Source: Isurus oxyrinchus (lineage: Eukaryota). Taken from it: DNA of 64,000 bases. Location: assembly GCA_026770705.1 (NCBI GenBank), contig JANJGN010000026.1, positions 35,712,001-35,776,000 of the forward strand. Reading direction: 5' to 3'. The notes under the pieces were generated by a model. It was not told where the DNA came from and searched no databases. It was given only the letters and a program-made list of their open reading frames with translations. Within the stretch, counting starts at the first letter, position 1; the number at the start of each line of letters is the position of its first letter. Made by a program: the position numbers and the translations under genes. Shown piece after piece: positions 4,481-62,272 of this stretch.

Positions 4481-4568
4481 ATTCCAGTTCCCTGGTGTCT
4501 TAGTGCCCGCCTCTACAAACATCTGCTGTCGGTGACACCATTACTTGAAGCTGTGAATGTTCAGGGTT
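4481..4568 (+). pseudogene. Leaderless supporting TCR-delta V, cassette 1; only FR1 remains
   Basis: Acceptor ctccAG at 4479-4480; (D)SSSLVS*CPPLQTSAVGDTIT*SCECSG, homologous to 16500-16587; then fused directly into the RSS array. Confidence 0.8.
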
Positions 4569-12213: not shown

Positions 12214-12722
12214 ATGGGAATCCTCCTTCTTTTCACTGTGTGTGTCTGTTTACCCCGTGAGTACCGATCAAACAAACCGACATTGTTTGGATTTAATATA
12301 AAGCTGCCTGTATCCATCTCTATTACAGACACTGTCCTGGGTTTTAAACCCGTTCTGTGGTTCGGCTCTGATGCTCCATTAACATCTCTCTGTTTAATTT
12401 TCAGGCTCTTTCAGTCAGTCAGTGGTACAGACCCCGGCAGCGGTGACGAGGAAGGAGTGTCAGTCTCTCACCATCACCTGTGTTTTCAATGATAATTATT
12501 ATTATTTTAAAAATGGGCATTTCTTCAGACAAACCCGGGACAGAGTGGGAGCGGATCTCCAGCGGGCGGGGGTGAGGTGGGGGGGGGGGGGGGGGGGGGG
12601 GCGGTGGGGGGGGGGGAGATTTGTTGTGTCGGTGAATAAAGCAGAAAAGACATTTTCTCTGGATATTCGAAATGTGAGAGTTGAAGACACCGCCACCTAT
12701 TACTGTAAAGCTCAGTATGACA
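12214..12722 (+). CDS. NAR-TCR V gene segment, cassette 2: leader exon 12214-12256, V exon 12405-12722; open as assembled but with aberrant poly-Gly insert
   Basis: MGILLLFTVCVCLP(R)SFSQSVVQTPAAVTRKECQSLTITCVFNDNYYYFKNGHFFRQTRDRVGADLQRAGVRWGGGGGGGRWGGGRFVVSVNKAEKTFSLDIRNVRVEDTATYYCKAQYD. Phase-1 GT/AG intron, canonical Cys pair, plus the non-canonical FR1 Cys described for NAR-TCR V. Confidence 0.85.
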
Positions 12723-12760
12723 CACAATTATGGGCCTCGGCTTCCGGCGATACAAAAACT
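12723..12760 (+). other. RSS of NAR-TCR V2 (CACAATT - 22 nt - ACAAAAACT)
   Basis: Heptamer 12723-12729, nonamer 12752-12760; spacer homologous to that of V1. Confidence 0.8.
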
Positions 12761-13092
12761 CTCACTGCAGATTGTCACAGAAACAAATGGAAAAGCGGAG
12801 TTAAGTCTGCACAGTTCCCCCACAGTTCCGCCTTAGTTCCCCCGTCTGTCCCACAGTCTAGTTTATAATGAGATTGGATTATTTCTGTTAACATCTTGAG
12901 TTTTATGAATGCCGAGTGTGTGCGGATGGTGATGTCTTTCCCGGGATTGGTGTCAATGAATGGGGATTGGGAACGACTAATCCTATTTACAAACCCCGAA
13001 CACCAGATATGATCCTGGTCTAACAGCTGGAATCGGGAGCCGGCAGTCCCCGCTGTCTAACTAATGTCTCCAAATATCACCAAGTACCCGGG

Positions 13093-13165
13093 AGATTTTC
13101 TACTGACTTGTAAAACTGTGTGGATGGGTGCAGCAGTCACAATAGGAGAGACCTGTATAATTTAA
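13093..13165 (+). other. Candidate NAR-TCR D segment (coding 13121-13137 TGGATGGGTGCAGCAGT) with flanking RSSs
   Basis: 5': AGATTTTCT-12-AACTGTG; 3': CACAATA then a weak nonamer (12-spacer ATAATTTAA or 23-spacer ATAAATTCT); lies between V and J. Confidence 0.65.
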
Positions 13166-13466
13166 ATATAAATTCTCTGGGCCCGGATAGTGAATTGTCG
13201 GGTTGATGTTATCATCGCTGGAATCTGGTTACATTTCATTGTAATTTCCACCATTCAGTTATCTTTCTTTGTTATTTTTCTCGGTTCGCATGAAGCGAAC
13301 ATCTCGTTCTGGGCACCATATATTCAGAGCTCAGGGCCTCGCAAAGAACAGTTTGACCCAACAGAGACTTTGGAACATTGAATATTGTTTATTTATTTAA
13401 ATCCGCTGAATGATTGGGCAATTTCTACTGTCTGATGATGATTCCCCGGCAGGTTGAGGTGTCGGT

Positions 13467-13558
13467 GGTTGCTGTACCGGGGAGACTGAGGGCGGCGTCA
13501 CTGTGGTGGTATATTAAATATATCGATGGATCCGGGACGGTGGTGACTGTCACAGCCG
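13467..13558 (+). CDS. NAR-TCR J segment, cassette 2 (RSS 13467-13505; coding 13506-13558)
   Basis: GGTTGCTGT-23-CACTGTG, then WYIKYIDGSGTVVTVTA and donor G/GTAAGT at 13559; phase 1 is compatible with the supporting V acceptor (G+AT=Asp). Confidence 0.88.
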
Positions 13559-16499
13559 GTAAGTGACTCAAAACCCCGCCGGGTTACAGCCTGTCCTGTG
13601 TAATGTTCACCGTCAGTTTATTATTGATATCAGTGGAGTTTGGGTGGGATGTGAGAGTTGGTGGATTCTGGGCCATTATTGGTTTAACGGGCACATCGCG
13701 GACAACATCAACATCACGGACTCTCACACTCTAATCGCTTTTTATGAGCGCAGATTGTCGACAATCCGCACTCCACTCCCGCTGTTAACTGTGACCGAGT
13801 GAGATCTATCTGTCCCTTAGAGCCCAGGAGCGGGGTCACAGAGCTCTCTCCTGGGTAGCGGATTGCAGTCCCAGCCGCATAATGTGAATGAGCTACCGGG
13901 TGAATAAACTCAACACAACTATGGCCAGTTTGGATACCTGCAGCTGCTCGTTCAATACCTGACCCGGGAGAAAAACGGGGAGAGTGACACCACGGACTTC
14001 AGAAATAAGACCCTGATGTGGGTCCAGGTGGAATTTTATTTTGGAAAATCAGTGACTGAAATTAGTAACATTCTCCCCGCCATTTCTTTCAATTGTCTTC
14101 AAAAAACCAATCACTTTCCTCCTTTTCCACCCTCAGACTGAAATGTGGAAGTTTGGATCTGCCGACACTTCTCTATATTGAATGTACATGCTTGAAAGAT
14201 GGGAAATTTTGTAATTTATCTGTATCCCTGATTACTATGAATTGAAACAGCACGGTGCAGTGAGCGAGTCAGGGTAATGCATTCATCTTATCAAGGAGAA
14301 TAGGGACAGAAGGAAACAATTAGAAACTGTGGGAATGTTCATTGAGAACCAGCAAGAAATAATTAATCGAAAGGGAGGGAAGGATTGGATGATTTCTGGA
14401 CGCCTTTGAAAGTACAATCCGCCCCCAGGGTGTTGGATGAGGTTTATGGAGGGAAGGACTGAAATGGACTCCAGTCCGGAATGCTCTGTAAAGTTTTGTT
14501 CTCCTTACAGAAGAGAGATCAATCTGCATTGGAAGGAGTGCAACAAATGTTCATCAGACTGATTCCTGAGATGAAGGGATTGTCCAATGGGAAGGGATTT
14601 AGTCGTCTCTGTCTATATTTCCTAGAGTTAGAAGAATGAGAGGTGATCTCACGATAACATACATTATACTGAAGGGTTTTGACAAGGCATATTCTGGGTC
14701 GGTGTCTCCCCAGACTGAGGAGTATAGAGCTCGGGGTCACAACTTCAGAGTAAATAGTCATCCATTAGAACTGAGAAGGAAAAAAACATCTTCATTAGAA
14801 CCATTGTTGTGAATCTGTGGTATTCTGTAACTCAGAGGTCTGTGGATGTTCAGTATCTGTTTGCTTTGAAGACAATATTTGATAGGTTTGCGGACACTAA
14901 AATATCAGGAATATGGGGAGAGTGCGGGAATGTGACGTTGAGGTTATAAATCTGCCAGGATATTCCTGAATGGCTGAGCAGGTTTGAAAGGTGATATGGG
15001 GGCTCCTGTTTCTATTGATTGGATTCTCTGCTTTGATTTTTTATACTCCTGAGAAAAGAAATCAGCAACAATCCACATCTCTTTGCGAAGATTGAACAGG
15101 CCGGGTCTCTTTTTTCTGGAAAACAGAACCAAGAGGAGAATCCATAGAAATCTTTTGAATCATGAACTGTTTTATGGTGGAGAAATTGTTCATTTGTGGC
15201 TGAGGTGCAAAGCAATAGCTGTCAACATATGACAGTAACTAACAGAACAAATAAAACATTTAAGACAAATGAATTTAAACAACGGCAGGTTAGAATGTGG
15301 AACTTGCTGCCACAGGGAGAGGTCGGGGCAGATGGTATTGATATATTTATTGGAACACTTGAAATTTCAGGAGGGAGAACGGAACAGACCAACACAGGGA
15401 GCTGGATGGAAATGGTCAGTTAGGTTACTGGTGAGGTCAAGCTGGAATTGATTATATACAAAGGCTGAATGGCCCATTCCTCTTTTGCATTCTTCTTCCT
15501 CTATAATGTAAAATTGAGAGAGAACTCCGCCCAGTGAACCCAGGAGAGAATCAACCAATGGGCGGAAGGAATTGAAATTGTCAGAGAGCCAGAAGAGGCA
15601 GTTCCCAGTGAGTAACAGTTAAAATCGCTGCGGAAACTGAACAGACTGAGCCCAACCGACAACTGTGAGAATTTGGGACAAGTTCCCACGATTGCAAAAA
15701 GCACAAGCAGCACAAAATTAACGTGAAATAAAAGGAATGTGAACTTAAAGAAATAAAATGAAATTAATTGCATGTGTTCGAAATTAAGCTGAACTGGAGA
15801 AAAGTGGACCCTATTGATAGAATATATAGAAATAGAACAAATGGCAGATAGAAATTCCCGAGCCGTTTTAAACCGCAGTAAATGATTGACCTTTCACCAC
15901 GAGAGATGCTCACTCACGGTTTGGCCCGATCGGTGCTGATGAATCCCGTCAGTTTGTGTTGGATCCTGCTGTGCGCAGTGATGCCACACAGCTGTGTTTC
16001 TCTGCAACAAACATGTTTTTTTTGGAAATTGATTGATTCACTGATCATAAAATGCTCCCCCGGCTATGTGTCTCACCAAGGAAAGTAGAAACCGGAATGT
16101 AATATAATTCATAGAATTATCCAGCACGGAAGGATGACATTCGGCCCATCGTGTAGGCACTGACCCTTTAAAAGTGTAATACAATTGTTCCCACTGCCCA
16201 TGAATTTTCTCCTTGCTCTATATTTGTATTTACATTTCTAGGACAGACCCATTACCCGTTTGAAAGTTACTATTGAATCTATCCCCAACACCAATTCAGA
16301 CAGTGCAGTCCTGATCGGAAGAACTCGCGATGTAAAATAAAACATCACCTAATTCCCCATTTGGTCATATTTTCATAACAGTGAACAAGGTTCAAATAGG
16401 CTTCCAGCAAATAAAATTACTGCAAAAAGCAGAGCTATTCACGCGATTGACAAATTCTCCTGGACAAATATTGGCTGTGTTCATTTTTTTATCCTCCAG

Positions 16500-19354: not shown

Positions 19355-22300
19355 ATGCACGGCCGAATATCTGGTGTAGTTTATGCCATTTACTATCCAA
19401 TTCTTGCTGCTATTGGAGTTCCGGGTAAGTCTTTGGGCTAAACCATCAATTGGACAAAGCACTGTTTTATGGATTTCCAGCATCCGCAGTTTTTTGTTTT
19501 TATCTCTGTGTTTAATTGACTGCCACTTCTCTTCAAGAAATGCCTACCTTGAACAAGTACTGCTCTTCTCTCCGACAGGATTTTCGTATCTCTCTTTTGC
19601 CTTGTTCACTGCTTGCTTGTCCCTACAACCACCGCCCGGCCCCCCCCCCCCCCAACCCACATCTCTCCCCACAACCCCAACCCCCCACCCCCACCTTAAA
19701 CCAGCTTATATTTCACCCATCTCCTAATTTTACTCAGTTCTGTTGAAGGGTCAGCTTTATTTTTCTCCGTCAATGCTGCCAGACCTGCTGAGTTTTTCCA
19801 GGTATTTTTGTTTTTGTTTTGGATTTCCAGCATCCGCAATTTTTTTTGTTTTTATCACTGTTGTATGAAGCTGGTTCTGTCAATGACAATTAAAAATTGT
19901 GATATAGTCATCTTCAGGCATTTCTTTAAACTCACTTGATCAGGGATATACAAACTTTCCACCGTTTTAATATTCCTTTGTTTTAAACTTAAGCATTAAT
20001 AATTAAGTCTCTGAAAAACCCAAAACTCTGCGTCTATTCCTTTCCACCATCCGTGCGAAGGCTGCACAGGTTGCTAGATTGATTTCTAAAAAGTAATATT
20101 CTGGTAACCTTTTCGAAATCGATAGTTAACGGATATCCTTCTACAAGTGAGTAACTGAAGAATACATATCTAACGATACCAACTTTAGGTAGATTTTGAT
20201 TTTGTGTTAGTCTAAAAATGGCAATTGCCGTTGTTATATGTGCCTTGAATTATGGTTCCATTGTTTTCAGGTGAATTACAATTCTGGACGGATGTGGAAT
20301 GAGCTGCAGATTCATTAACAGCCATTTCACATTTCTGCCTGAAGTTAAGATTCACCTACCTGAAATGGTTGAGGTGTGAAATTGATCTTGAGCTGTGAAG
20401 CAAGCTGGCTGCCAGTTTTACACTCGATGCAGTCCTCTGTCCCATTGACATCGGAGGCTTGGAAATCGGACCAAATGTAAAACTGTCAGCTCATTCGATC
20501 CAGCCTAAAAACGGTTCCTGCCCCATGGAAGTCAAAGGGTATCGAGTGCAGGTGGGAGTGTGGAGCTGTGGCCATGCTCAGATCAGCCAAGATCTTATTG
20601 AATAACGAAGCAGGCTAGAGGGGCCGAATGGCCTGTCTGTGCTCCTGATTCGTATGTTTGTATGTCTTTGAAATACTCGCCCTAGGCTACTGAATTAATA
20701 GTTTAGAGTCAATATAGTGATCTTCTCTTTGAGTTTGGGCTCCTTTACATTAAGCCAATCAATCACTATTTCCCATTCTGCGCTAAAATTGCCCTTTAAT
20801 TTGTCTCTTTCTGGGTTTGCTGTTACAAGGAAAGCCATGAAGTTATGAACTAAATGAAGTCTAAAAATGAATGCGGAGATCTGATCAAAATAATCACTGG
20901 TGTCAAATGTTTTTAATTACAAAGTCAATCATTATACTTACCGAGTAAGTTAACATAAGTAGTTATGTTTCAGTTCTTTATCGCTTTCATGAGAAAACCA
21001 GGTGAATATTTACTTTTTGTATCGTATCTTACTGAGTCGCCGCTACTTTGTTCTAATGATTTTGCTACTCTGTGTTCTGAAACATTTTTCTCTCGCCAGA
21101 GCTAGTTGAGCGAGGAAGGAAATGCTGTTGTGTTGTTTCATACATGACAAAATCTCCGGTAGATAACCGAGATCAGTCGTGTTTGCAAAAAATTTGTTGT
21201 GGCTGAGAAAAGGAATGTACATAGACCTTTCATGCCAACCAGGTTATGTTCCGCGAGCGGAAGCTCATGCTTACGTCACTGGGTTAATGATCCAGAGGCC
21301 TGAGCCAATGACATGAGTTGCAATTCTAATTCTACTAATTAATTTAAATGGAGATAATAAATAACTCTGGAATAAAGTTGAAGTGCCAGAAATAGTGATC
21401 AGGCTAGTACAAGATCATCACAATAAACTTTACCCGGTTCACTAACGTTCTTCAGGGAAGGACATCTACTCCGGCTGAGATATGATTCCAGATCCACAAC
21501 AATGTGGTTGAACATTAACGGCCTTCTGAAATGACCCAGAAAACCACTCAATCGGTAGGTGGCGGCTCGCCACCACCCTCTAAAAGGCAATTCGTGATGG
21601 ACCTTATACCTTATACCCTGGCGTTGTGTGCTCTTTTTTCTTGCAATTTTTGGATACTTACCTGGCAAGGGAGAGACCTTCATTGCGTTTCTGCCAGGGA
21701 AAGAGCAATGGCTATAACCAGTCAAACCCCTTACTATGGGGTACCTAACACCATCTGAGTCATGGTGAAGGGCAGCGAGCAAGGAACAGGAATGGATAGG
21801 ACCTTCTTCACCAAGAGGATCCTATTCAAGCTGTGTGGTTTTGAGGCTGTGGAGATCTACTGCCTACAGGATTTCCCCAGCGCTGGTTTCTTTGATGTGA
21901 CCTTCAAGCAAGTGGCAGCTTGTGTCAAACTACTGAAGGTGTTTGAGGAAAAGGAAGACCTGCCAGAAATGAAGATCCTGACAGCGGAGCCGCTCTTTGC
22001 TCTACCGTTGCAACGAGAACGGGTTGCAACGGTGCATCTGTACAACCCCTACGTCCATGTCGCTGACGTGCTCACCTTCCTTATCAGGTACTTCGATAAG
22101 GTTGGGAGCTGCACTGAGGTTAAAGATAATTTGGGGATCTGGACATGTAAACGCCAGGTTAATGTAATGCTCAAGACCGACGGTAAGGGAGCCAGTTTCC
22201 ACCCCACTTCCAGATTTGCTACGCTGGGCAACCCAAACTTTCTAGCTCATGCGGCAAGTCTGGTCATGTGGCGGCCAGCTGCAGTGCTGTCCTCTACAAG

Positions 22301-25300
22301 AACTGCAAAAAGGAAGGGCACCAGACAAAAGATTGTAAACTGGCTAAGTGCTGCAACCTGTGTGGCGAGGCAAGTCACCTCTACAAGACCTGCCCCAAAC
22401 GTTGCCTTACTTATGCACAGGCAGCTAAAGCCAACAAGGGGGAAGCAGATGAAATGCCTCACGTCATTCCAACCACCAAGGCCCCCAGGGAGAACAACGG
22501 GACAAAGGAGGACACAGAGAGAGACAAGGTGGAGGAAAAGATTGGGGCAACAGACGGCCAACCAACAGCACTGCCCCCTGAACCTCCCACTCCTCAGGAG
22601 AGCGAATCAATGGAGGAGGAGGAGGCAGCAGTGGGAAAGCAGCAGGGGGAGTGGCAGCTGGTGAAGAGAGCCAAAAGGAAGAAGGGGCTAAAAAGAAACC
22701 AAGCCACTTCCCAGACAAGAGTCAAGAGGCGTCTCCTATCTGACACGGATGACAAGAGCAGCAGCTCTTCGGACGAAGAAGGGCCAGGGCGGCGCCAACA
22801 GAAGAAGCGGCAAAACGCTAGGGAGTTGGAGGATGAGACACCCGAGCTCCAGAACATTGGAGACAATGAAGAGACCAGCGCACCCCAACTTTGCCCACAA
22901 CCCGAAGAGGCCAGTGCACCACAACCCCAGGAATCTGGGAACAGTGAGGCGCTCAATGCACCCCAGCTCCGGGAAGCTGGGAGCAGCAACGCCCCAGAGG
23001 CGGAGAGGATTGGAGAAGCTTCTCCAACAGAGGACATTTCAAACCCCGCTCTCTGCATGGACCCCCAGATGCCACCCGAGCAGAACATCTCCAATGGAGA
23101 GGTTCAGGACGCTTTCCTCAGCCCATCCCAAGTGAAGCAATCTGAGCACACTACGGGCATGAAGGAGCAGACCAATGGTCTGGAACTCTCAAATACAACA
23201 GGTTTGGTAAGCGACTAACTGCTTTAAAATGGGTGTAAAGATTGTATCCATAAATGTGCGTAGCATTAAATCTACTACGCGATGTGTTGCGACCTTGGAT
23301 TACCTTGCTAAGGTCAAAGCTGACCTGTTGTTTCTGCAGGAGTGTGCGATACCGCACCTCAGCTCCTACAGGCAATGGTCACGATGGTGGTCACATGGGC
23401 CATCGATCTGGTCGGGAGGAAACGACTCTCGTTCCTCCGGCCTGGGGATTCTGCTGCGGGGAGACAGCTTCACCGTCTCCCAGGTTAAGGAGGTGGTGGG
23501 CAGGTGCCTCCTCGTAGCAGACGTAATGTATAAGAATGCTCCACTCTGGTTAATTACAGCCATCACAAGGGGCTGAGCGGCTGGAGGTTTTTCAGCAGCT
23601 CCCACTGCTGCTGGCGACCTCCAGGCTGGTCATTCTAGGCAGTGACTTCAACTGCATCATCGATGTGGCTGGACGATCCAGCAGGGCTGACAGCAGATTG
23701 GATGCGACATCCAGATGCCTGATGGAAACAGTAAAGGATGCCAAGCTGCACAACGTCTTCAGCAACCCTGCAGACAGAGCGCAGCATATATACACCTGGT
23801 CGCAGCCTGACAGGTCCATCTGTTCCAGGATAGATTTCCTCTTTGGGTCCCGTGCATTCACAGTCAGATCCACCGACGTCAAGCCGGTGTTCTTCTCTAA
23901 CCACTGCCTCCTACTGGCTGACTGTTACTTAGAGAAGGACCAGAGGGTTGGCAGGGGGTCATGGAAGCTAAACGTGGAACTGCTGACCCCAGAGAACATT
24001 GAGGAGCTCAAGAGGGATTACAAAGGTTGGAGAACCGTGAAACCTCTCTTTGAATCCCTGACACACTGGTGGGAAGCGATCAAGGGAAACATCAAGAGGT
24101 TTTTCGTCCTCAAAGGCACCCAGAAAGCTAGAAAGGAACAGAGGGAAATGTCCCGACTCCAGAAAAACATGCAGAACCTGCTCTGGCTGCAGTCGATGCG
24201 GGTCGATGTCAAGGAGGAACTCCAAGAGGTGAAGAGCCAGCAAGCCTCACTCTTTGCCTCGGAGGCCTCCAAGATCATCTTCCATTCCAGAGTCTGCTCC
24301 GTGGAGCAGGATGAGACGTGCTCACGTTTCTTCTTCCAAAAGGTACACAGAGAGATCTCTGTGCTCAGCAGCCTGAAGGAAGAAGATGGCTCAGTAAAGT
24401 CATCACAGTCTGACATTTTGAGGATCAGCAAATCCTTCTATGCTGGATTATATGACGTGAAGCCCACAGACAGCACGGCCTCCCAGACTTTCCTGTCCTC
24501 TGTCACGGAGGTCTTAGACGACAGTACACGGGAGAGTCTGGACAAAGTGCTAACTCCTGACGAACTGACTGAGGCCCTTGAGTCCTTCGAGAAGAGTAAA
24601 ACTCCCGGAAGCGACGGCTTGCCAGCGGAGTTGTATTCGGCTCTGTGGGACTGGATCAGCCCAGACCTGCTAGAAGTGTACGAGAGTATGCTCCTGGCCG
24701 GAAGTATGTCAGAATCCATGAGGAAAGGCATTATCACCCTCATCTACAAGCACAAGGGGGAAAGGGAGGAAATTAGAAATTGGTGACCCATTTCACTGTT
24801 GAATGTGGACTATAAAATTCTGTCCAAGTTCATCGCCAATCGGGTCAAATCCGCTCTGGAATTGGTGATCCACCCTGACCAGACCTGCACTGTGCCGGGC
24901 AGGAAGATCTCTGACAGCCTCACGCTGCTCAGGGCTACAATTGCCTACGTACAGGACAGGGGTGTGGATACCTGCCTCATCAGCCTGGATCAGGAGAAGA
25001 CCTTTGACAGAATATCGCACACCTACATGGTGGATGTGCTCTCCAAAATGGGGTTTGGGGAGGGAATTCGCAATTGGATCATACTGCTCTACACTAACAT
25101 CAGTAGTGCAGTCTCAATCAATGGGTGGGAATCAGATAGCTTTCCTATTAAATCTGGAGTCAGGCAGGGCTGCCCTCTCTCACCTGTTCTTTTCGTGTGT
25201 TGCATAGAACCCTTTGCTGAGTCCATCAGGAAGGATCCGGGCATAAGCAGTGTGACGATCTCAGGCAGTGGAGGCACTCAGGTCAAAGCCTCCCTGTACA

Positions 25301-28300
25301 TGGATGATGTCACCGTATTCTGCTTGGATCTGCTGTCAGTGCGCAGACTGATCCACATATGTGACCATTTCGAACTGGCCTCGGGAGCCAAGTTAAATCG
25401 TGGGAAGAGCGAGGCCATGTTCTTTGGGAAATGGGCTAACCGATCCTTTGTCTCCTTCACTGTCAGGGCTGATGGCCTGAAGGTGCTGGGGATATGTTTC
25501 GGAGGGGCCAGGGCACGCGTTAGAAACTGGAAGGAGCGAGTGTCTATGGTGAAAAGGAAACTGGGCCTGTGGGAGCGACGCTCCCTCTCCATTGCGGGTA
25601 AGAACCTGGTCATCAGGTGTGAGGCACTCTCGCTGTTGCTGTACGTGGTGCAGGTCTGGCCCATTCCATACTCCTGTGTGGTGGCGATCACCCGAGCCAT
25701 CTTCCACTTTATCTGGAGGTCGAAAATGGATCGTGTCCACAGGGACACGATGTACAAGCCTCTAGATAAAGGGGGAAAAACGTGCCCAACATCGCCCTCA
25801 TACTGATGGCCACCTTTGTGTGTGGCTGCATCAAGCGGTGCATAGACCCTCAGTACGCTAACACCAAGTGTCACTACATGCTGAGGTTCTACCTGTCCCC
25901 AGTGTTGTGAAGGAGGGGTCTGGCCACGCTGCCGTGGAATGCTCCAAGTAGTTGGACCATGCCGTACCACCTGTCCCTCGTGGGAAAATTTATGCAGGGA
26001 AACACCTTCGACCACAAGTCCAATAGGCAGTGGTCGGCACGTAACGTCTTAAAGGCCCTGAGGGAAAAGGAGAGGGTGGATCCTGTGGGATGGTTCCCTG
26101 AGCAGACTGACAAAGTCATTTGGCAGAATGCCTCATCACCAGAACTTTCCAACAAACACCAAGATGTAGCTTGGCTGGTGGTGAGAAAGGCCCTCCTGTA
26201 AGATCCTTCCTACACGCCAGGTGTCTCACCCCCTCTGCACGTTGCCCTCGAGGTGGCTGTGTTGGGGAAGGGACCATTGTTCACCTCCTCATAGATTGTG
26301 TCTTTGCGAAGAAGGTCTGGAGAGAGATGCAATGGTTTCTGTCGAGGTTCATCCCGAACAGTTCTGTGACAGAGGACTCTGTGCTCTACGGGCTGTTCCC
26401 AGGGACACACCGAGACAAACATCAACTGCAGCTGGAGGATCATCAACTCGGTGAAAGACGCTCTTTGGTCTGCCCGAAATTTGTTGGTTTTCCAGCGCAA
26501 AGAGTTGTCCCCGACCGAGTATTGCAGACTGGCACATTCCAAGGTCCAGGACTACGTGCTGAGGGACACAGTTAAGCTTGGGGCAGCCGCCGCAAAGGCG
26601 CAATGGGGAAGGGTCGCTGCCTAAGACCTTTCTGCCACAGTGCACTGGGGGGCTGGGAACTGTAAAGAGCCCCTCAGGCTGTACAGATTAAAATGAATGT
26701 CTGCCAATGATTGAAATATTCATTGTTTGCTCTGATACACCTTGTGATTCATGTTGTAAAAGTTGAACTTGATTGTTTTTTTGTAATGGTGATTTTAAAT
26801 GGTTCGAAATGTTTTTGAAGATTTATGAATAAAGTATATTTTTGAAAAAAAAATGGCAATTCGTGTTGGACAATAAATGCTGTTGCTCCAATGTCGCCTA
26901 AATCGAGTGAATGAATGAATAAAAAGGGCCTGGGTGTAGGAGGGGCTAGAGGGCTAACCCTACATCCAGAAAGTTGGAAGGTAAGTCGAAACTGCTGTTA
27001 ACTTGAGAATCAGGCGTTCTGCTGAGCTGTGCGCCACTGGAACAGACCTGAGAAGCTACCTGAGCATATATGAACAATGGGCAAGTTCCATGTTTCTGTC
27101 ATTATGTGTGGCTCTAAATGAGCATGATAAGGTTTTAGTGATAGGCAATATGTACCAATAGGCTGCAAAATTTGCATTCCGCTCAGTGCGAGATGAAACG
27201 TGGCGAATGGGAAATTCACATAGAACCAAACGTTCCCGATATTAGGGAGGCATAAAATCGATGACCTGCATTGAGATATCCATTTGATGCTCTGGGGGTT
27301 GCCAGACTGATATAAATGAGAAAGATTCTTCAGTTCGATCCGGGCCAAAAACGGTTGATGCCCCATGGGAATCAAAGGATATCGGGGGCAGGTGGGAATG
27401 TGGCATTGAGGCCGTAATGAGATCAACCGTGATCTTACTGAATGGTGAAGAAAGCTAGATGGGCCGAATGGCCTGTCTCTGCTCCTGATTCGTTTGTTTG
27501 TATGTCCCTGAAACATTCGCCCAAGGCTACTGAATTAATAGTTTAGTGCATAGCCACTATAGTAATCTTCTATTCATTGCGGTTACAGGGCACAGATCGG
27601 CACGCTCTATACTTCAGCCGCTCAAATGTCAGAATTCACCTGGGAGTGAAGACAAATGTTAGGAATAAAATTCGTTTTTCCTGTAGCTCAGACTGAGAGA
27701 GGTTCCAAACAAAATTCAAACCATGCCGGATGTTTTCTTCAATCATTGTGCACTGTCCCAAAAAAGAATTTCAGCGCCAATATTTGGTTTGACTCTCTTG
27801 GGGTATTGAATTGCCTTTTGGCCAATGGGGGTGAAGAGTGGGAAAAGAACTACGGACATGATTCTGGTTACATCTGGGGGTCCAGACTAACGGTTTAATT
27901 ATTTTAAACAAGAGTTGCTCTGGGCCTCGAACTGTAGCTCCTCCTCTTCACTGGTGTCACAGGGCCTGAAAATTATCCCTTCCATTTTGAGGCCCTCTAG
28001 AGGCAAGTGATACTCATGAAAATCGCCTCATCTTTATTTTATTAATCCAAATTATATCACCTTGGACATCAGCAATAATCCAACTTGTTGATTTAATTAA
28101 TGTCATTAGAATGTTAAAGTATGTCATGCATCCACACTTACAGGTAGCATCGCTACCGGGATCTGAGGTACATGATCCAAACCAGGGGGCTGCTCATCAT
28201 TGAGTACCAAAAAATTACTGAAAGTTATCTAGTTTACATATCCAGATGGACGATGTGTGATGACCTGGGAGATGATCATTGTCATGCTATATATACATGG

Positions 28301-30413
28301 TCATTTGCTCTTACAGCTGCAGATTTGCATATGGCACCATGTGTGCTCCATTCTCGCTGCGGTATGATTGATGTCTTTCGGGAAGCTCAGACAGATTTGT
28401 GTACAAGAACACCAGAGATAGAAGCAGCAGAAGACCATGCAACACGCCGAGCCAGCTCCTCCTTTAAATGAAATCATGGCTGATCCTGGGCTTCTATCCG
28501 CTTTCCGCCGGGTCCACATATCATTTGATTCCCTGAGACGTCAGAAATCTGTCTATCCAAGTCTAAAATCTTCTCAACAATGAAATATCCACAGACCTCT
28601 GGGTATAGAATTCCAGAAATGCACTAACTTTCTGCTGCTCTCCATCCGAAATGATCGCTCTCTTATCCCGAAGCTGTTCCCGGAGGCTTTAGATTTTCCA
28701 GCCAGCGGGAAAACCCTCTGCATGTCTATCCCGTCAAGCCCCTTGAGAATAGTACTTGTGATTACCTCCCATTCTTCTAAATCCCTGTAAATATAAGACG
28801 AAGTTATTTCGCCTTTCATCGTCGGGCAATAAACATGACACTTCAGCAGAATGCGAACTGTGGAAACGTGGACATATCGCCTTCAAACTAGCAGTGTTTC
28901 AGACATAAGTCATTTGGTTCTTCTCCAATTGCATACACCCAACACATCCTGCTTCCTAAATATCCTCCCGTGGAATCCTATCGAGCCAATTTAAACGATG
29001 TCACAGTGTACATTTCAACAACAGAAAGATAATTAATATGGCTACTGTGTTTAGAGGAAATGCCCTGTAACATGATGCAACATCCAAAGGTTGAGTGCCA
29101 AATACTACAAGTAACCTCGAGGCCTTCAGCTGTCATGTCCTAAGCTCTCTTAAATTCACTCCCTAAAACATTCCGCCTCTCTACTGCACTCTCTTCCTTA
29201 AATCGTCCCTTAAACCTATTTCATTCTCATCCTTTTTCGTCATTTGGCAAAACTTCTCCTTATGTGGTTGGATATCAAATTTTGCTGTATCACTCTCCTA
29301 TCATGCGATTGGGCCACTTTTTTACGTAAAAGGCGTGATATAAATGCAGCGTATCCGTGTTGTTTATGTTGAAACAGAGATGACATTGAAAAGCTATTAA
29401 TCATTGATTTGGTTGTCTTCTATAAACGAGGATGAAGTATCAAAAGCCTGTAACATTCAAGTCCCTGCTTGAACTTTACAATGTTAATTTTGTTTTTTCT
29501 CTCAGTTAACATGGTGACGATTGAGATCCTATCCCGAGGAAGGTGTGGCCTCTCCAAATGCATCGCTCGGTACCTGGTGTCCATGGCAGTGACGGATCTC
29601 CTAGTTGTTGTGAGCGCTGTGATATTCAATCGGATCATTGGCATTTATTTTCCCGTTAGTTTTATGTCCATGACTCCAGCCTGTACTCTCAGTACTGTGC
29701 TAATCTACGCAGCCACGGAGAGTTCTGTCTGGTTCACCATCGCTTTCACCTTTGATCGATACATTGCCATTTGCTTCCAAAAGCTGAAAACAAATTATTG
29801 CACCGAGAGAGTGGCGGCTGTGGTTGTAGGAACTGTCTGTCTGTTAAGCTGTTTAAAAAGTGTTCCCTGGTACTTTATGTATGAACCACTCTATATAATG
29901 AACAATGTACCGTGGTTTTGTAATGTAAAATCAAGCTTCTACACTTCATTCGCATGGACAGCCTATGATTGGTTTGCACGTATTTTAAATCCGGGTCTGC
30001 CATTCCTTCTGATTCTTTTGTTCAATGTTCTGACCGTCAGGCACATCATCGTGGCCAGTGGAGCCCGCAGGAGACTCCGAGCTCACAGCAGTGGAGAGAA
30101 GCAGAGTGATCCAGAGATCGAGAACCGGAGAAAGTCAATCGTTTTACTCTTTACCATCTCGGCAAGCTTCATTTTGTTGTGGATGACGTATGTTGTAAAT
30201 TTCCTATATGTGAAAATTACAAACGAACCTTATTTTACAGGTTCCAATTTCAATGATCCCAAATTCATTCGTCAAGAAAGCGGAAACATGCTTCAACTCC
30301 TGAGCTGCTGCACCAACACGTGTATTTATGCAGTGACCCAGAGAAAATTCAGAGAGGAGCTGAAAAATGCAGCAAAATATCTTGTGAATCTAATTCTGAA
30401 GTTAGTAAACTAG
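19355..30413 (+). CDS. Class A GPCR, GPR139/GPR142-like, 325 aa; exon 1 19355-19424, exon 2 29506-30413
   Basis: Exon 1 MHGRISGVVYAIYYPILAAIGVP + G/GTAAGT; acceptor ctcAG 29504-29505 gives in-frame V-N-M. 7TM pattern: MAVTDLL (TM2), FTFDRYIAIC (TM3), PFLLILLFN (TM5), FILLW (TM6), NTCIY (TM7). Confidence 0.9.
19472..19855. mobile_element. Penelope-like element remnant with terminal direct repeat and 12-bp TSD
   Basis: TSD cactgttttatg (19460-19471) / cactgttgtatg (19856-19867); ggatttccagcatccgca terminus at both ends. Confidence 0.7.
21278..21602 (+). mobile_element. Shark SINE (SacSINE1/DeuSINE-like), split by the Tx1 insertion; remainder at 26855-26925
   Basis: ggttcactaa..ttcagggaagga core and ggcaatt..atggrcaataaatgctg tail, also seen at ~48760-49110, 49560-49812 and 51030-51320. 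Confidence 0.6.
21654..21678 (+). ncRNA. U1 snRNA 5'-end-derived fragment in the Tx1 5' UTR (not a full snRNA gene)
   Basis: ATACTTACCTGGCAAGGGAGAGACC vs U1 ATACTTACCTGGCAGGGGAGATACC, 23/25 identical, starting at U1 nt 1. Confidence 0.85.
21708..23218 (+). pseudogene. Tx1 ORF1 (ZCCHC3-like gag with CCHC zinc knuckles, acidic/basic tail)
   Basis: MAITSQTPYYGVPNTI*VMVK..YCLQDFPSAGFFDVTF; knuckles YKNCKKEGHQTKDC and CNLCGEASHLYKTC; TGA at 21756-21758 and frameshift near 22230. Confidence 0.85.
23229..26624 (+). pseudogene. Tx1 ORF2 (APE endonuclease - RT - C-terminal CCHC), several stops/frameshifts
   Basis: SINVRSI, FLQE, SRIDF, PGSDGLPAELY, SGVRQGCPLSP, YMDD, CPRGGC..HLLIDC; TGA at 24784-24786 and other breaks. 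Confidence 0.92.
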
Positions 30414-33073: not shown

Positions 33074-34068
33074 GATACTTGAACAGGAAGATTTGCTGAC
33101 AGGAAACTCAAAGAAAACATCACGTCACAATCTGACAGATTCACTCAATACATCTGGAGCTGGATATCATTGAATCTTTAATATAGAAGGAGAAATGTTT
33201 TACCAATTGCACAGCCTGAAAAAGCATTGCACCATTCACATCGAGGACAAATTGTGTGGATGAGGTTTGAACTAACCACCCAACATGGATAGCCACGAGG
33301 ACACCAGCACCATGGTGAAACCATGGAAATGTGGGGACTGTGGGAAGGGATTTGGTTCCCCATCAAAGCTGGAAATTCACCAACGCAGCCACAATGGGGA
33401 GAGGCCATTCACCTGCTCCGTGTGTGGGAAGGGATTCACTCATTCATCCAACCTTCTGAGACACGAGCACATTCACACTGAGCAGAGTTCAGTCATCTGC
33501 TCCGTGTGTGGGAAGGCAATCATTCATTCATCAAACTTTCTGAGGCACCAGCAAACTCACAGTTTAGAGAGGCCGTTCACCTGCTCTGTGTGTGGGAAGG
33601 GATTCACTCAGTCATCCTACCTGCTGACACACCAGCGCATTCACACAAGGGAGAGTCCATTCATCTGTTGCTTGTGTGGAGAGGGATTTAACCGATTATC
33701 CAGGCTTCTGACGCATCAGAGAATTCACACTGGGGAAAGTCCATACACCTGCTTTATCTTTGGGAAGGGATTTAATCGGCCATCCAAACTATTGACACAC
33801 CAGCGAATTCACACTGGGGAGAGGCCATTCACCTGCTCCATGTGCAGGAAGGGATATACCAATTCATCATACAATTCATCATACAATTCATCACACTGGC
33901 GAGAGGCCATTCACATGTTCCATGTGTGGAAAAGGATTCATTCGGTCATCCCACATTCTGACACATCAACTTGTTCATACTGATCAGAGACCTTTTAAAT
34001 GTTCTGACTGTGAGAAGACCTTTAAAAGTGAAAAGGATCTGATTACACACCAGCGAGTTCATAAGTGA
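33074..34068 (+). pseudogene. C2H2 zinc-finger gene 1, probably pseudogene (ORF 33285-33983, frameshifted before last two fingers)
   Basis: Repeated [16 protein letters not shown]; 12-nt triplication aattcatcatac at ~33861-33895 shifts frame; native end ..HQRVHK* at 34068; acceptor tttacAG at 33072-33073. Confidence 0.8.
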
Positions 34069-40166: not shown

Positions 40167-41066
40167 ATGGAGAAACCATGGAAATGTGAGGACTCTGGGA
40201 AAGGATTCAGTTACTCATATCTGCTGGAAAACAATAAACGCAGTTACACAGGGGAGAGGCCATTCACCTGTTCTATGTGCGGGGAGGGATTTACTCAGTC
40301 ATCTGGCCTTTGGTCACACCAGCGCATTCACACTGAGGAGAAGCTATTCAACTGCACTTCCTGTGGAAAGAGGTTCAGGCATTCTTCTGCACTCACTGTA
40401 CACCAATGCACTCACACTGGGGAGAGGCCATTCACCTGCTCCGAGTGTGGGAAGGGATTTACTCAGTCATTCCACCTGACACAGCAGCGAGTTCACACTG
40501 GAGAGAGGCTGTTCACTTGCTCTGTGTGTGGGAAAGGATTCACTGGGTTATCCCACCTGCTGTCACACCAGCGAATTCACATTGAAGAGAAGCCATTCAG
40601 TTGCACTTCCTGTGGAAAGAGTTTCCGGCAGGCATCCTCCCTCATTTTACACCAGCAAGTTCACACTGGGGAGAGACAATTTGCCTGCTCCATGTGTGGG
40701 AAGGGATTCACAGTTTTACCCAACCTGCTGAGACACCAGCGAATTCACACTGGGGAGAAGCCATTTAGCTGCACTTCCTGTGGGAAGAGTCTCAGGCAGT
40801 CATCCAACCTCACTGCTCACCAATGCACTCACACTGCGGTGAGACCATTCACATGCTCCGTATGTGGGAAAGGATTCAGTCGGTCATCCAACCTCACCGC
40901 ACACCAGCGAGTTCACACTGGGGAGAGGCCGTTCACTTGCTCGCTGTGTGGGAAGGGATTTGCAAAATCTTTCAACCTGCTGACCCACCAACGCACTCAC
41001 ATTGAGAAGAGGTTATTCAACTCTCAGTGTGTGGGAAGGGATTCACTCAGTCACGATGCCTCCTGA
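40167..41066 (+). CDS. C2H2 zinc-finger gene 2 (~8 intact fingers; decayed fingers upstream, last finger frameshifted; may be pseudogene)
   Basis: 299-aa ORF of tandem TGERPF-linked fingers; native terminus HQQVHK* out of frame at 41087-41089. Confidence 0.75.
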   Translation: MEKPWKCEDSGKGFSYSYLLENNKRSYTGERPFTCSMCGEGFTQSSGLWSHQRIHTEEKLFNCTSCGKRFRHSSALTVHQCTHTGERPFTCSECGKGFTQSFHLTQQRVHTGERLFTCSVCGKGFTGLSHLLSHQRIHIEEKPFSCTSCGKSFRQASSLILHQQVHTGERQFACSMCGKGFTVLPNLLRHQRIHTGEKPFSCTSCGKSLRQSSNLTAHQCTHTAVRPFTCSVCGKGFSRSSNLTAHQRVHTGERPFTCSLCGKGFAKSFNLLTHQRTHIEKRLFNSQCVGRDSLSHDAS

Positions 41067-44716: not shown

Positions 44717-45669
44717 ATGGAAGGAAAAAGTACCGTTCACAGTGGAGAGAAATTGTACACATGTCCTGTGTGTGGACAAGGCTTCAACCAATCATCTGAC
44801 CTGTCAAGACACAAGTGCAGCCACATCGGGGAGAAACCATGGAAATGTGGGGACTGTGGGAAGGGATTCAGATTCCCGTCAGAGCTGGAAGAGCATCGGC
44901 GCAGTCACACTGGGGAGAGGCCGTTCACCTGCTCCACGTGTGGGAAGGGATTTACCCTCTCATGCAACTTGCTGAGACACCAGCAAGTTCACAGTGACAT
45001 GAGACCTTTTAAATGCCCAGACTGTGGGAAGTGCTTTAAAAGTTCCTGGGAGCTGATGTACTATCAGTGTGTTCACACTGACAAGAGACCATTTAAATGC
45101 TCTCAATGCGGGAATGGGTTCAGGCGATCATCTCAACTCATTGTACACCAGCGAATTCACTCTGGGGAGAGGCCGTTCACCTGCTCCACTTGTGGGAAGG
45201 GATTCATTTATTCACCCCGCCTGCTGAGACATCTGTGAGTTCACATGGAGGAGAGACCGTTTATCTGCTCTGAGTGTGGGAAGGGATTCACTTGGTCATC
45301 CCACCTGCTGACACACCAGCAAGTTCACACTGGGGAGAGGCCATTTAGCTGCCCCAGTGTGGGAAGGGATTCACTCAGTTATCTAGCCTGCTGAGACACC
45401 AGCAAATTCACAGTGGGAAGAGGCCGTTTTCCTGCCCTCAGTGTGGGAAGAGATTCATTACCTCATCCAACCTGCTGACACACCAACGAATTCACACAGG
45501 AGAGAGGCCATTCACCTGCCCTCAGTTTGGGAAGAGATTCACTACCTCAAACAACCTACTGATACACCAGCGAGTTCACACTGAGGAGAGACCATTCACT
45601 TGCGCCCAGTGTGGGAAGAGATTCACTCATTCACCCCACCTGCTGAGACACCAGCGAATTCACAAGTAA
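44717..45669 (+). pseudogene. C2H2 zinc-finger gene 3; premature TGA 45236-45238 and later frameshift (originally ~11 fingers)
   Basis: [16 protein letters not shown]..; finger repeats continue past the stop to HK* TAA 45667-45669. Confidence 0.85.
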
Positions 45670-61318: not shown

Positions 61319-62272
61319 ATGGAAGGGAAAAGCACCATCCATAATGGAGAGAAACTGTACGTGTGTTCTGTGTGTGGACGAGGCTTCAGCCAATCATCTG
61401 GCCTGTCGAGACACAAGCACAGTCACACTAGGGAGAAACCATGGAAATGTGAGGACTGTGGGAAGGAATTCACTCATTCATCCGCCCTGCTGAATCACCA
61501 GCGTGATCACACTGGGGAGAGACCATTCACCTGTTCCGTGTGTGGGAAGGGATTCACTCGGTCATTCCACCTGATGACACACCAGCGAGTTCACACTGGG
61601 GAGAGACCATTCACCTGCTCCGAGTGTGGGAAGGGATTCACTCAGTCATCCCACCTGTTGACACACCAGCGTGATCACACTGGGGAGAGACCATTCACCT
61701 GTCCTGTGTGTGGGAAGGGATTCACTCGGTCATTCCACCTGATGACACACCAGCGAGTTCACACTGGGGAGACACCATTCACCTGCTCTGTATGTGGGAA
61801 GGGATTCACTCGGTCATCCAACTTGCTTATACACCAGCGAGTTCACACTGATGAAAGGCCTTTTAAATGCCCAGATTGTGGAAAGTGCTATAAAACTTCT
61901 GGGCAATTGATCTCCCACCAACGTGTTCACACTGAGGAGAGACCATTCAAGTGCTCTCACTGTGGAACTGGGTTCAGGCGATCAACAAACCTCACTGTAC
62001 ATGAACGAATTCACACTGGGGAGAGACCATTCACCTGCTCTGAGTGCGGGAAGGGATTCTCTGATTTATCCACCCTTCTAAATCACCAGCGTGTGCACAC
62101 TGGAGAGAGGCCATTCACCTGCCCTGAGTGTGGGAAGGGATTCACTCAGTCAGCCAGCCTGCTGAGGCACCAGCGGATTCACACTGGGGAGAGGCCATTC
62201 ACCTGCTCCGAGTGTGGGAATGGATTCACTGACTTGTCCAAACTGCTGAGACACCAGCGAGTTCATGAGTAA
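61319..62272 (+). CDS. C2H2 zinc-finger gene 4, intact, 317 aa, 11 fingers, no KRAB/SCAN domain visible
   Basis: [16 protein letters not shown]...HQRVHE*; 11 complete CxxC-x12-HxxxH units; acceptor tcacAG 61208-61209; in-frame TAA at 61292 upstream of the ATG. Confidence 0.9.

Follow-up and report, generated by a model that had tools for sequence, protein, structure and literature searches.

A Tx1-type LINE family of Isurus oxyrinchus that inserts into U1 snRNA genes and likely borrows their promoter

Why does a retrotransposon in a likely receptor gene intron of Isurus oxyrinchus begin with the first letters of U1 snRNA? We examined this question in a window of 64,000 nucleotides (the whole stretch of DNA analysed here; C26:35712001-35776000 of a 4.98-Gb genome) and in related copies elsewhere in the assembly. 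The explanation that we consider probable is that the element is one decayed member of a Tx1-type LINE family, which inserts repeatedly at U1 nt 39/40 and also at U2 nt 38/39, with source copies likely using the upstream promoter of U1. The element would thus start with the 5' letters of U1 because its family inserts at one spot in U1 and likely borrows the promoter found there. The relevant features of the window are as follows.

21586-21602, plus strand: 5' target-site duplication (TSD) of 17 bp, 16/17 identical to 26855-26871
21603-21653, plus strand: junction insert of 51 bases, present only in this insertion and its segmental duplicates, ending in GG
21654-21684, plus strand: true element 5' end, formed by nt 1-31 of U1 snRNA, 28/30 to host U1 L033
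21687-21704, plus strand: decayed copy of U1 nt 40-57 (the arm), after a fixed 6-base gap, 12/18 match
21708-23218, plus strand: ORF1, broken by an early stop and a frameshift, with two ZCCHC3-like RNA-binding domains and a CCHC knuckle
23229-26624, plus strand: ORF2, broken, with AP-type endonuclease, reverse transcriptase, and zf-RVT
26828-26853, plus strand: AATAAA signal and short poly(A) tail, read from the sequence
26855-26871, plus strand: 3' TSD, 16/17 identical to the 5' copy
19425-29505, plus strand: likely host intron of a rhodopsin-family 7TM receptor gene, GT...AG and phase judged by eye

The element (21654-26853, plus strand) is oriented in the sense direction within the likely receptor intron, for which exon 1 comprises 19355-19424 and exon 2 begins at 29506 (PF00001, E=1e-21 on 29481-30410). 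A sequence-only reading of the window had described an element bounded by TSDs and an ORF1 start codon at 21708, and both are present. In ORF1, PF23057 and PF23058 were recognized in the window itself, and PF00098 fell just below the cut-off on another copy (L092). In ORF2, RVT_1 was recognized in the window, and Exo_endo_phos, RVT_1, and zf-RVT on copy L092. Two ORFs, the first with RNA-binding and CCHC domains and the second with an endonuclease-reverse transcriptase-zinc order, together with a poly(A) tail and a TSD, constitute the architecture of the Tx1 clade. ORF2 is 42-53% identical to vertebrate Tx1-type proteins, with 42% pairwise identity to a zebrafish "transposon TX1 uncharacterized 149 kDa protein", and the closest named match in the protein search is a horn shark protein (68%). 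A fugu reverse transcriptase (BAD04856.1), whose record carries no family name, is 44% identical, and no match in the search with the reverse transcriptase bore the name Keno. Elsewhere in the window, inspection of 12400-13570 by eye suggests a V exon end of immunoglobulin or T-cell receptor type with a recombination signal, as well as a J segment carrying a donor site, and C2H2 zinc-finger arrays occupy ORFs at 33285-33983, 40167-41066, 44717-45238, and 61319-62272.

The match to U1 nt 1-25 that the sequence-only reading had placed at 21654 was borne out by comparison with the U1 genes of the host, which were located with Rfam RF00003. Positions 21654-21678 agree with the genome's own U1 genes at 24/25 bases, and the identity to a U1 variant (L033) is 28/30. 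Family forms of the head are closer still (25/25 and 30/31), and a sister subfamily is identical at 31/31. The first 14 bases of the head occur once in the window, with none expected from 100 shuffles. An Rfam search, which that reading had proposed as a check, returned no U1 in 20500-23000 with cmscan, presumably because the U1 piece is too short, and none at the gathering threshold among 13 element loci. About 0.7 kb upstream of the element, a palindromic stretch at 20921-20950 also contains the first nine U1 bases and a donor-like word, possibly by chance.

The start of the element was first placed at 21603, which does not hold: it starts at 21654, with U1 nt 1, and the preceding 51 bases are specific to the locus. 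This insert was present in 6 of the 40 matches from a genome sequence search, namely the window locus and five others that share its flanks at 93-98% identity over the available flank, four of them over at least 4 kb on at least one side. Judging from these flanks, the insert-bearing loci are the window locus and its segmental duplicates. An Sm-like AATTTTTGG had been noted at 21645-21653 and is indeed located there, but the insert is confined to the segmental duplicates and the motif is therefore a junction accident; we rejected both the motif and the start at 21603 as family features. The insert appears to be partly a patchwork of reverse-complement pieces of the head, given that 7-mers of the reverse-complemented head cover 15 of its bases (a value equaled in 29 of 5000 shuffles). 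In two other copies (L084 and L100), the U1 5' end is repeated as short inverted pieces immediately ahead of the head; these produce donor-like words and probably represent fold-back of the cDNA end.

The head is a family feature rather than a one-off chimera. Copies gathered with head-containing queries form a biased set, and therefore we took a second sample by using an ORF1 word (the first 30 of 201 matches to one 23-mer). The U1 head was present in 26 of these 30 copies, the remaining four were cut off before or inside it, and none carried an alternative head. In the biased set of 95 distinct headed copies, 55 begin at U1 nt 1 and 85 within nt 1-4. A 31-mer internal to the head has 122 exact occurrences in the genome, and the sister form has 25. 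Pairwise identity across 33 full-length copies has a median of 94.4%, and their longest stretch free of stops spans 993 residues; most ORF2 relatives have about 1120-1180, and so none of the 33 looks intact.

All seven aligned U1 heads share the same anatomy: U1 nt 1-31/32, a 6-base gap, and an arm resembling U1 nt 40-57. A weak resemblance to U1 had been noticed at 21687-21699; the resemblance is real, but it is better read as part of this decayed copy of nt 40-57. The arm matches U1 at 12/18 bases in the window, at 13/18 in L361, and, in another organism, at 17/18 in a single contig end. Because nt 39/40-56 are duplicated by a tandem insertion in U1 (L255), the arm is likely a remnant of a TSD formed long ago in a U1 gene. 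Fold prediction pairs the arm back onto head nt 8-15. The predicted folding of the window head is no stronger than that of shuffled sequences (z of 0.02 to -1.1), so this hairpin is a prediction only. Sister families, which are about 78-90% identical, start with U2 nt 1-37 (30 loci, some beginning a few bases in), and between U1- and U2-headed relatives, common sequence ahead of the ATG is limited to about 10 bases. On the reverse strand of L051, a second truncated copy follows the first tail and consists of 20 head-arm bases joined to element position 4506, which we read as a one-off internal jump.

A piece of U1 3' flank beside one copy led us to three loci in which a poly(A) tail runs into the remainder of U1. 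Searching for such junctions then yielded 42 rows (29 with tail and U1, 11 with U1 alone, and 2 with the tail alone), and the tail joins U1 at nt 39/40 in all 28 loci inspected, a few of them with extra or changed junction bases. The 29 tail-U1 loci collapse to about 20 groups after duplicates are merged. By chance, approximately 0.00005 insertions would be expected at that base, assuming 5000 copies and 100 U1 genes. Furthermore, U1 upstream DNA adjoins the element in 10 of 23 stretches tested, and four of these ten (L230, L231, L238, and L240) keep the proximal promoter region. Of the 17 dispersed-type U1 promoters recovered in one search, 11 precede an intact U1 and 4 the element; one more is followed by a decayed U1, and the last has lost its U1. 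Copies within real U1 genes, which the sequence-only reading had proposed to look for, are thus present in this genome. The dispersed U1 genes themselves (L031-L036 and L344-L355) are alike for about 840 bases on the upstream side and for about 1.2-1.35 kb on the downstream side and then diverge, as if the gene had moved as a defined unit.

The copies at the U1 site vary in subfamily and in truncation point. In a tree of 71 3' segments, whose bootstrap values are not fully settled, placing the U1-site label (22 rows; L256 escaped the labelling rule) takes 11 changes, of which well-supported branches force at least 5. Insertion into U1 has thus been repeated and independent. Regardless, specificity for U1 is weak: 29 U1 junction loci compare with at least 710 tails, as judged from the 710 exact genome occurrences of a 28-mer from the tail of the window copy, and these tails are mostly dispersed.

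Tails also join U2 at nt 38/39, the site used by Keno, in 4 of 4 pattern matches, two of which continue through the rest of U2; one stacked copy at the U2 site is 95% identical to the window copy. The junction counts for U1 and U2 (29 versus 4) come from unequal searches. Comparison of 4465 pairs of 5' flanks from the 95 copies gave only 20 matches, mostly tandem copies of the element, and a single shared target other than snRNA was rejected, apart from two small hot spots. At one of these, U1- and U2-headed copies (L107, L296, L306, and L103) sit at or near the same spot of one repeat. At the other, three copies (L091, L105, and L188; also L068 and L069) lie within a few bases of one another in a different common repeat, with flank identities of 87-91% for the first three.

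Some arrangements combine the two snRNA genes. A tandemly duplicated unit of about 7.4 kb (L242, L258, and L259, at C21:76.77-76.80 Mb) contains a U2-headed element whose tail is joined to the rest of U1, and it is either a recombinant or a copy that set out from a U2 gene and came to rest in U1. Decayed U2-headed copies are also fixed in the spacer of a mixed U1/U2 array (L278-L300, at C29:0.18-1.11 Mb, C4767, and C256), and were amplified along with the gene array.

Copies residing in U1 genes have also acted as sources. In four copies (L191, L192, L235, and L234), a single TSD encloses the element together with the remainder of U1 and another 0.27-1.0 kb of 3' flanking sequence, and three of the four end in poly(A); L192 is 5'-truncated. 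Because these products have their own TSD around the element, the U1 remainder, and the flank, U1-resident copies were transcribed. L191, L193, and L234 carry the head type of the window copy and fall in the same part of the tree. Another group (L146-L149) shares one flank at about 93-96% identity, suggesting a single locus of origin. For the commonest transduced flank, no source locus was found in the assembly, where the best other match is 86%. A search for long TSDs downstream of 11 U1-junction copies was convincing only for L234, and so several U1-junction loci may reflect either direct insertion or transduction. At L104:5703-5975 (the same piece as L146), a polyadenylated U1 3' flank lacking both U1 and the element lies among four stacked insertions with one TSD in common, and it is likely an orphan transduction from a U1-resident source.

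The searches for promoters gave a more restricted picture. No U1 promoter DNA was detected in the 400 bases upstream of 84 headed copies, a region in which U1 genes match each other strongly, and no U2 promoter lies in register with any of the 30 U2-headed copies. When a young source copy was sought by its U1 start context, one exact and 21 near matches were recovered, none with a promoter, and no young promoter-linked copy of the subfamily of the window element was found in the assembly. The only full-length promoter-linked copy is L230, an older and decayed relative (85-91% identical), in which the order is promoter, one head, and element, with no second U1 start.

The base immediately before the head provides further information on the template RNA. 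Among the 51 copies that start exactly at U1 nt 1, this base is G in 32, compared to a background of 22% (p=5e-10). When only copies with a placeable TSD are considered, a final G is found in 4 of the 5 that have additional junction bases, and a G at -1 in 8 of the 17 that show microhomology. An untemplated G has been read as a trace of the cap for L1 and SVA (PMC4859970), and the G at -1 in this family is likely also a cap trace. From this bias we infer a capped RNA starting at U1 nt 1.

These observations, namely the fixed head, the fixed site, the promoter-linked copies, the transductions, and the G bias, can be joined in one proposed mechanism. Source copies would be transcribed by the external Pol II promoter of the U1 gene, which would give every full-length daughter a start at U1 nt 1. 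Early on, an insertion flanked by a TSD would have created a transcript of U1 nt 1-57 followed by about 10 bases of the element's own UTR, and a later loss of 6 bases together with substitutions would have given the present head. When such an RNA reenters a U1 gene, its cDNA would likely join across the nt 1-32 that the two have in common; the head would thereby remain single and stay in register with the promoter, an arrangement seen in L230. Most copies, including the one in the window, would land outside U1 genes and become promoterless dead ends. We thus read the family as a Keno-like Tx1 LINE whose specificity is weak, whose own 5' UTR amounts to about 10 bases, and which likely relies on an snRNA promoter. 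A master copy in a U1 gene, one of two origins suggested for the head by the sequence-only reading, is supported by the site-specific U1 insertions, the promoter-linked copies, and the U1 3' transductions. A counterpoint is that a shared part of the head (nt 33-57) passes down with the element and is not acquired anew, so that the homology step postulated above is needed.

A tentative extension, which we hold to be possible though doubtful, is that the family parasitizes Pol II snRNA genes while lacking a promoter of its own, targets them by position rather than by sequence, and renews its head and its link to the promoter by homologous joining whenever it returns to a U1 gene. The cuts in U1 and U2 lie at distances from the start that differ by no more than one base, though the nick bases differ. 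Targeting by position may involve docking on the snRNA promoter complex or on paused polymerase, for example.

An unlikely alternative is that the head was gained once, from a U1 gene or by template switching, that an internal promoter in the head or ORF1 starts transcription at nt 1, and that copies in U1 genes are a side product of residual targeting. This would fit an assembly with no young promoter-linked source copy and the inheritance of head nt 33-57 across subfamilies. Contigs from public runs of two other organisms, whose RNA status is mostly guessed, also cover the head and ORF1, but they extend into unrelated upstream flanks, as expected of read-through. Among the matches listed, no contig bridges the tail and U1. 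Also against this reading, the element's own UTR is about 10 bases long and works with either a U1 or a U2 head; the transductions, moreover, reveal U1-resident sources at several depths of the tree, and one relative, the third copy in L233, has a head made of the other U1 variant.

A template switch onto U1 RNA, the other origin suggested by the sequence-only reading, is disfavoured; its recurrent form, in which the reverse transcriptase adds heads again and again in this way, is highly improbable and was already largely refuted by the results above. Template switching has been proposed for crocodilian SINEU-2 and for human snRNA/L1 chimeras (PMC4494074), and a few heads in the present family do differ by U1 variant. 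However, such a class of chimeras should show variable and independent junctions between snRNA and truncated LINE, and was rejected because the aligned U1 heads all have one shared junction, the 6-base gap, and the arm. In addition, in a set of 30 copies none has a head joined directly to an internal element position, and tails fused to U1 nt 39/40 would be left unexplained.

Finally, it is very hard to credit that the head is kept as a U1 mimic that pairs with splice donors, either in the host intron (a pairing that the sequence-only reading had suggested) or at target sites, because the conservation of nt 1-11 is explained by copying from U1, nt 8-11 are predicted to be paired inside the heads of the window, L092, L136, and L244, loop I is cut, the family head lacks an Sm site, and an excess of donor-like words of at least 6 bases near the junction (7/95 flanks versus 27/855 further away) does not become a clear enrichment at 7 bases or more (2/95 versus 9/855). 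Splice-donor-guided targeting was rejected on the same counts.

Several known systems resemble this family in part. R2 elements have a restriction-like endonuclease, are transcribed by Pol I, and are freed by a ribozyme. The present element differs in having an AP endonuclease and in keeping the 5' end of its target and likely a cap. The likeness is that R2, in 28S rRNA genes, depends on co-transcription from the promoter of its target gene (PMC4494074). Dada-U1 likewise targets U1 genes, but Dada elements are cut-and-paste DNA transposons with TSDs of 6-7 bp and with neither an RNA intermediate nor a head (PMC8869645, PMC4640811).

Keno belongs to the Tx1 clade and is specific for U2 (PMC4640811, PMC6136364, PMC4494074), where it is described as inserting 37-38 nt into the gene (PMC6136364). 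The present lineage is similar in that it is an AP-endonuclease LINE, its tails join U2 at the Keno 3' target, and its sister families start with U2 nt 1-37. It differs in that it also targets U1 nt 39/40, and its specificity is weak, with most copies dispersed; at 29 U1-junction loci and at least 710 mostly dispersed tails, the U2 specificity of Keno is not seen. The available text of PMC4640811 names only Keno and Utopia (U2) and Dada (U1 and U6) as elements that target snRNA genes.

The closest precedent comes from crocodilians, for which U1-headed Tx1 elements are already published: Kojima (2015) describes U1 heads on Tx1-2_Crp, Tx1-2B_Crp, and Tx1-4_AMi (PMC4494074). The Tx1-Mar group (these three and Tx1-11_Crp), together with SINEU, resembles the present lineage in comprising U1-headed autonomous Tx1 elements and a U2-headed sister, in being related to Keno, and in forming tandem insertions at one site (PMC4494074). 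Those families are old (85-87% to consensus) and target Mariner-N4_AMi (PMC4494074), whereas the present copies are younger, as their median pairwise identity indicates, and sit in U1 genes, where they are promoter-linked and transduced. A preference for one Mariner-type transposon was not seen in the comparison of 5' flanks among copies. As presented in that paper, the gain of heads was ascribed to template switching, and the transcription of snRNA-headed Tx1 and SINEU was left open because snRNA promoters are external to the transcribed part (PMC4494074). The literature covered, including the available text of PMC8869645, yielded no LINE that targets U1 genes; subscription papers and Repbase lay mostly outside this search, and the novelty of the U1 site is thus provisional. 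No usable case of an mRNA driven by an snRNA promoter was present among the literature matches listed.

The younger family found here exhibits the missing steps in one genome, including the U1 site, adjacency to the promoter, daughters that carry U1, and a likely cap trace, and it makes promoter borrowing directly testable. U1 is added to the targets of non-LTR retrotransposons, for which the 2015 survey, in its available text, gave only U2 among snRNA genes (PMC4640811). About a quarter of one class of U1 genes has been knocked out by a single family. The family also offers a case of a coding RNA likely made from an snRNA promoter and read beyond the 3' box. If targeting by position is true, it would provide a general origin for snRNA-headed LINEs and SINEs. 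Insertion at the U1 site, together with the likely borrowing of the promoter, would explain how such elements, which are known from crocodiles as well, come to be transcribed.
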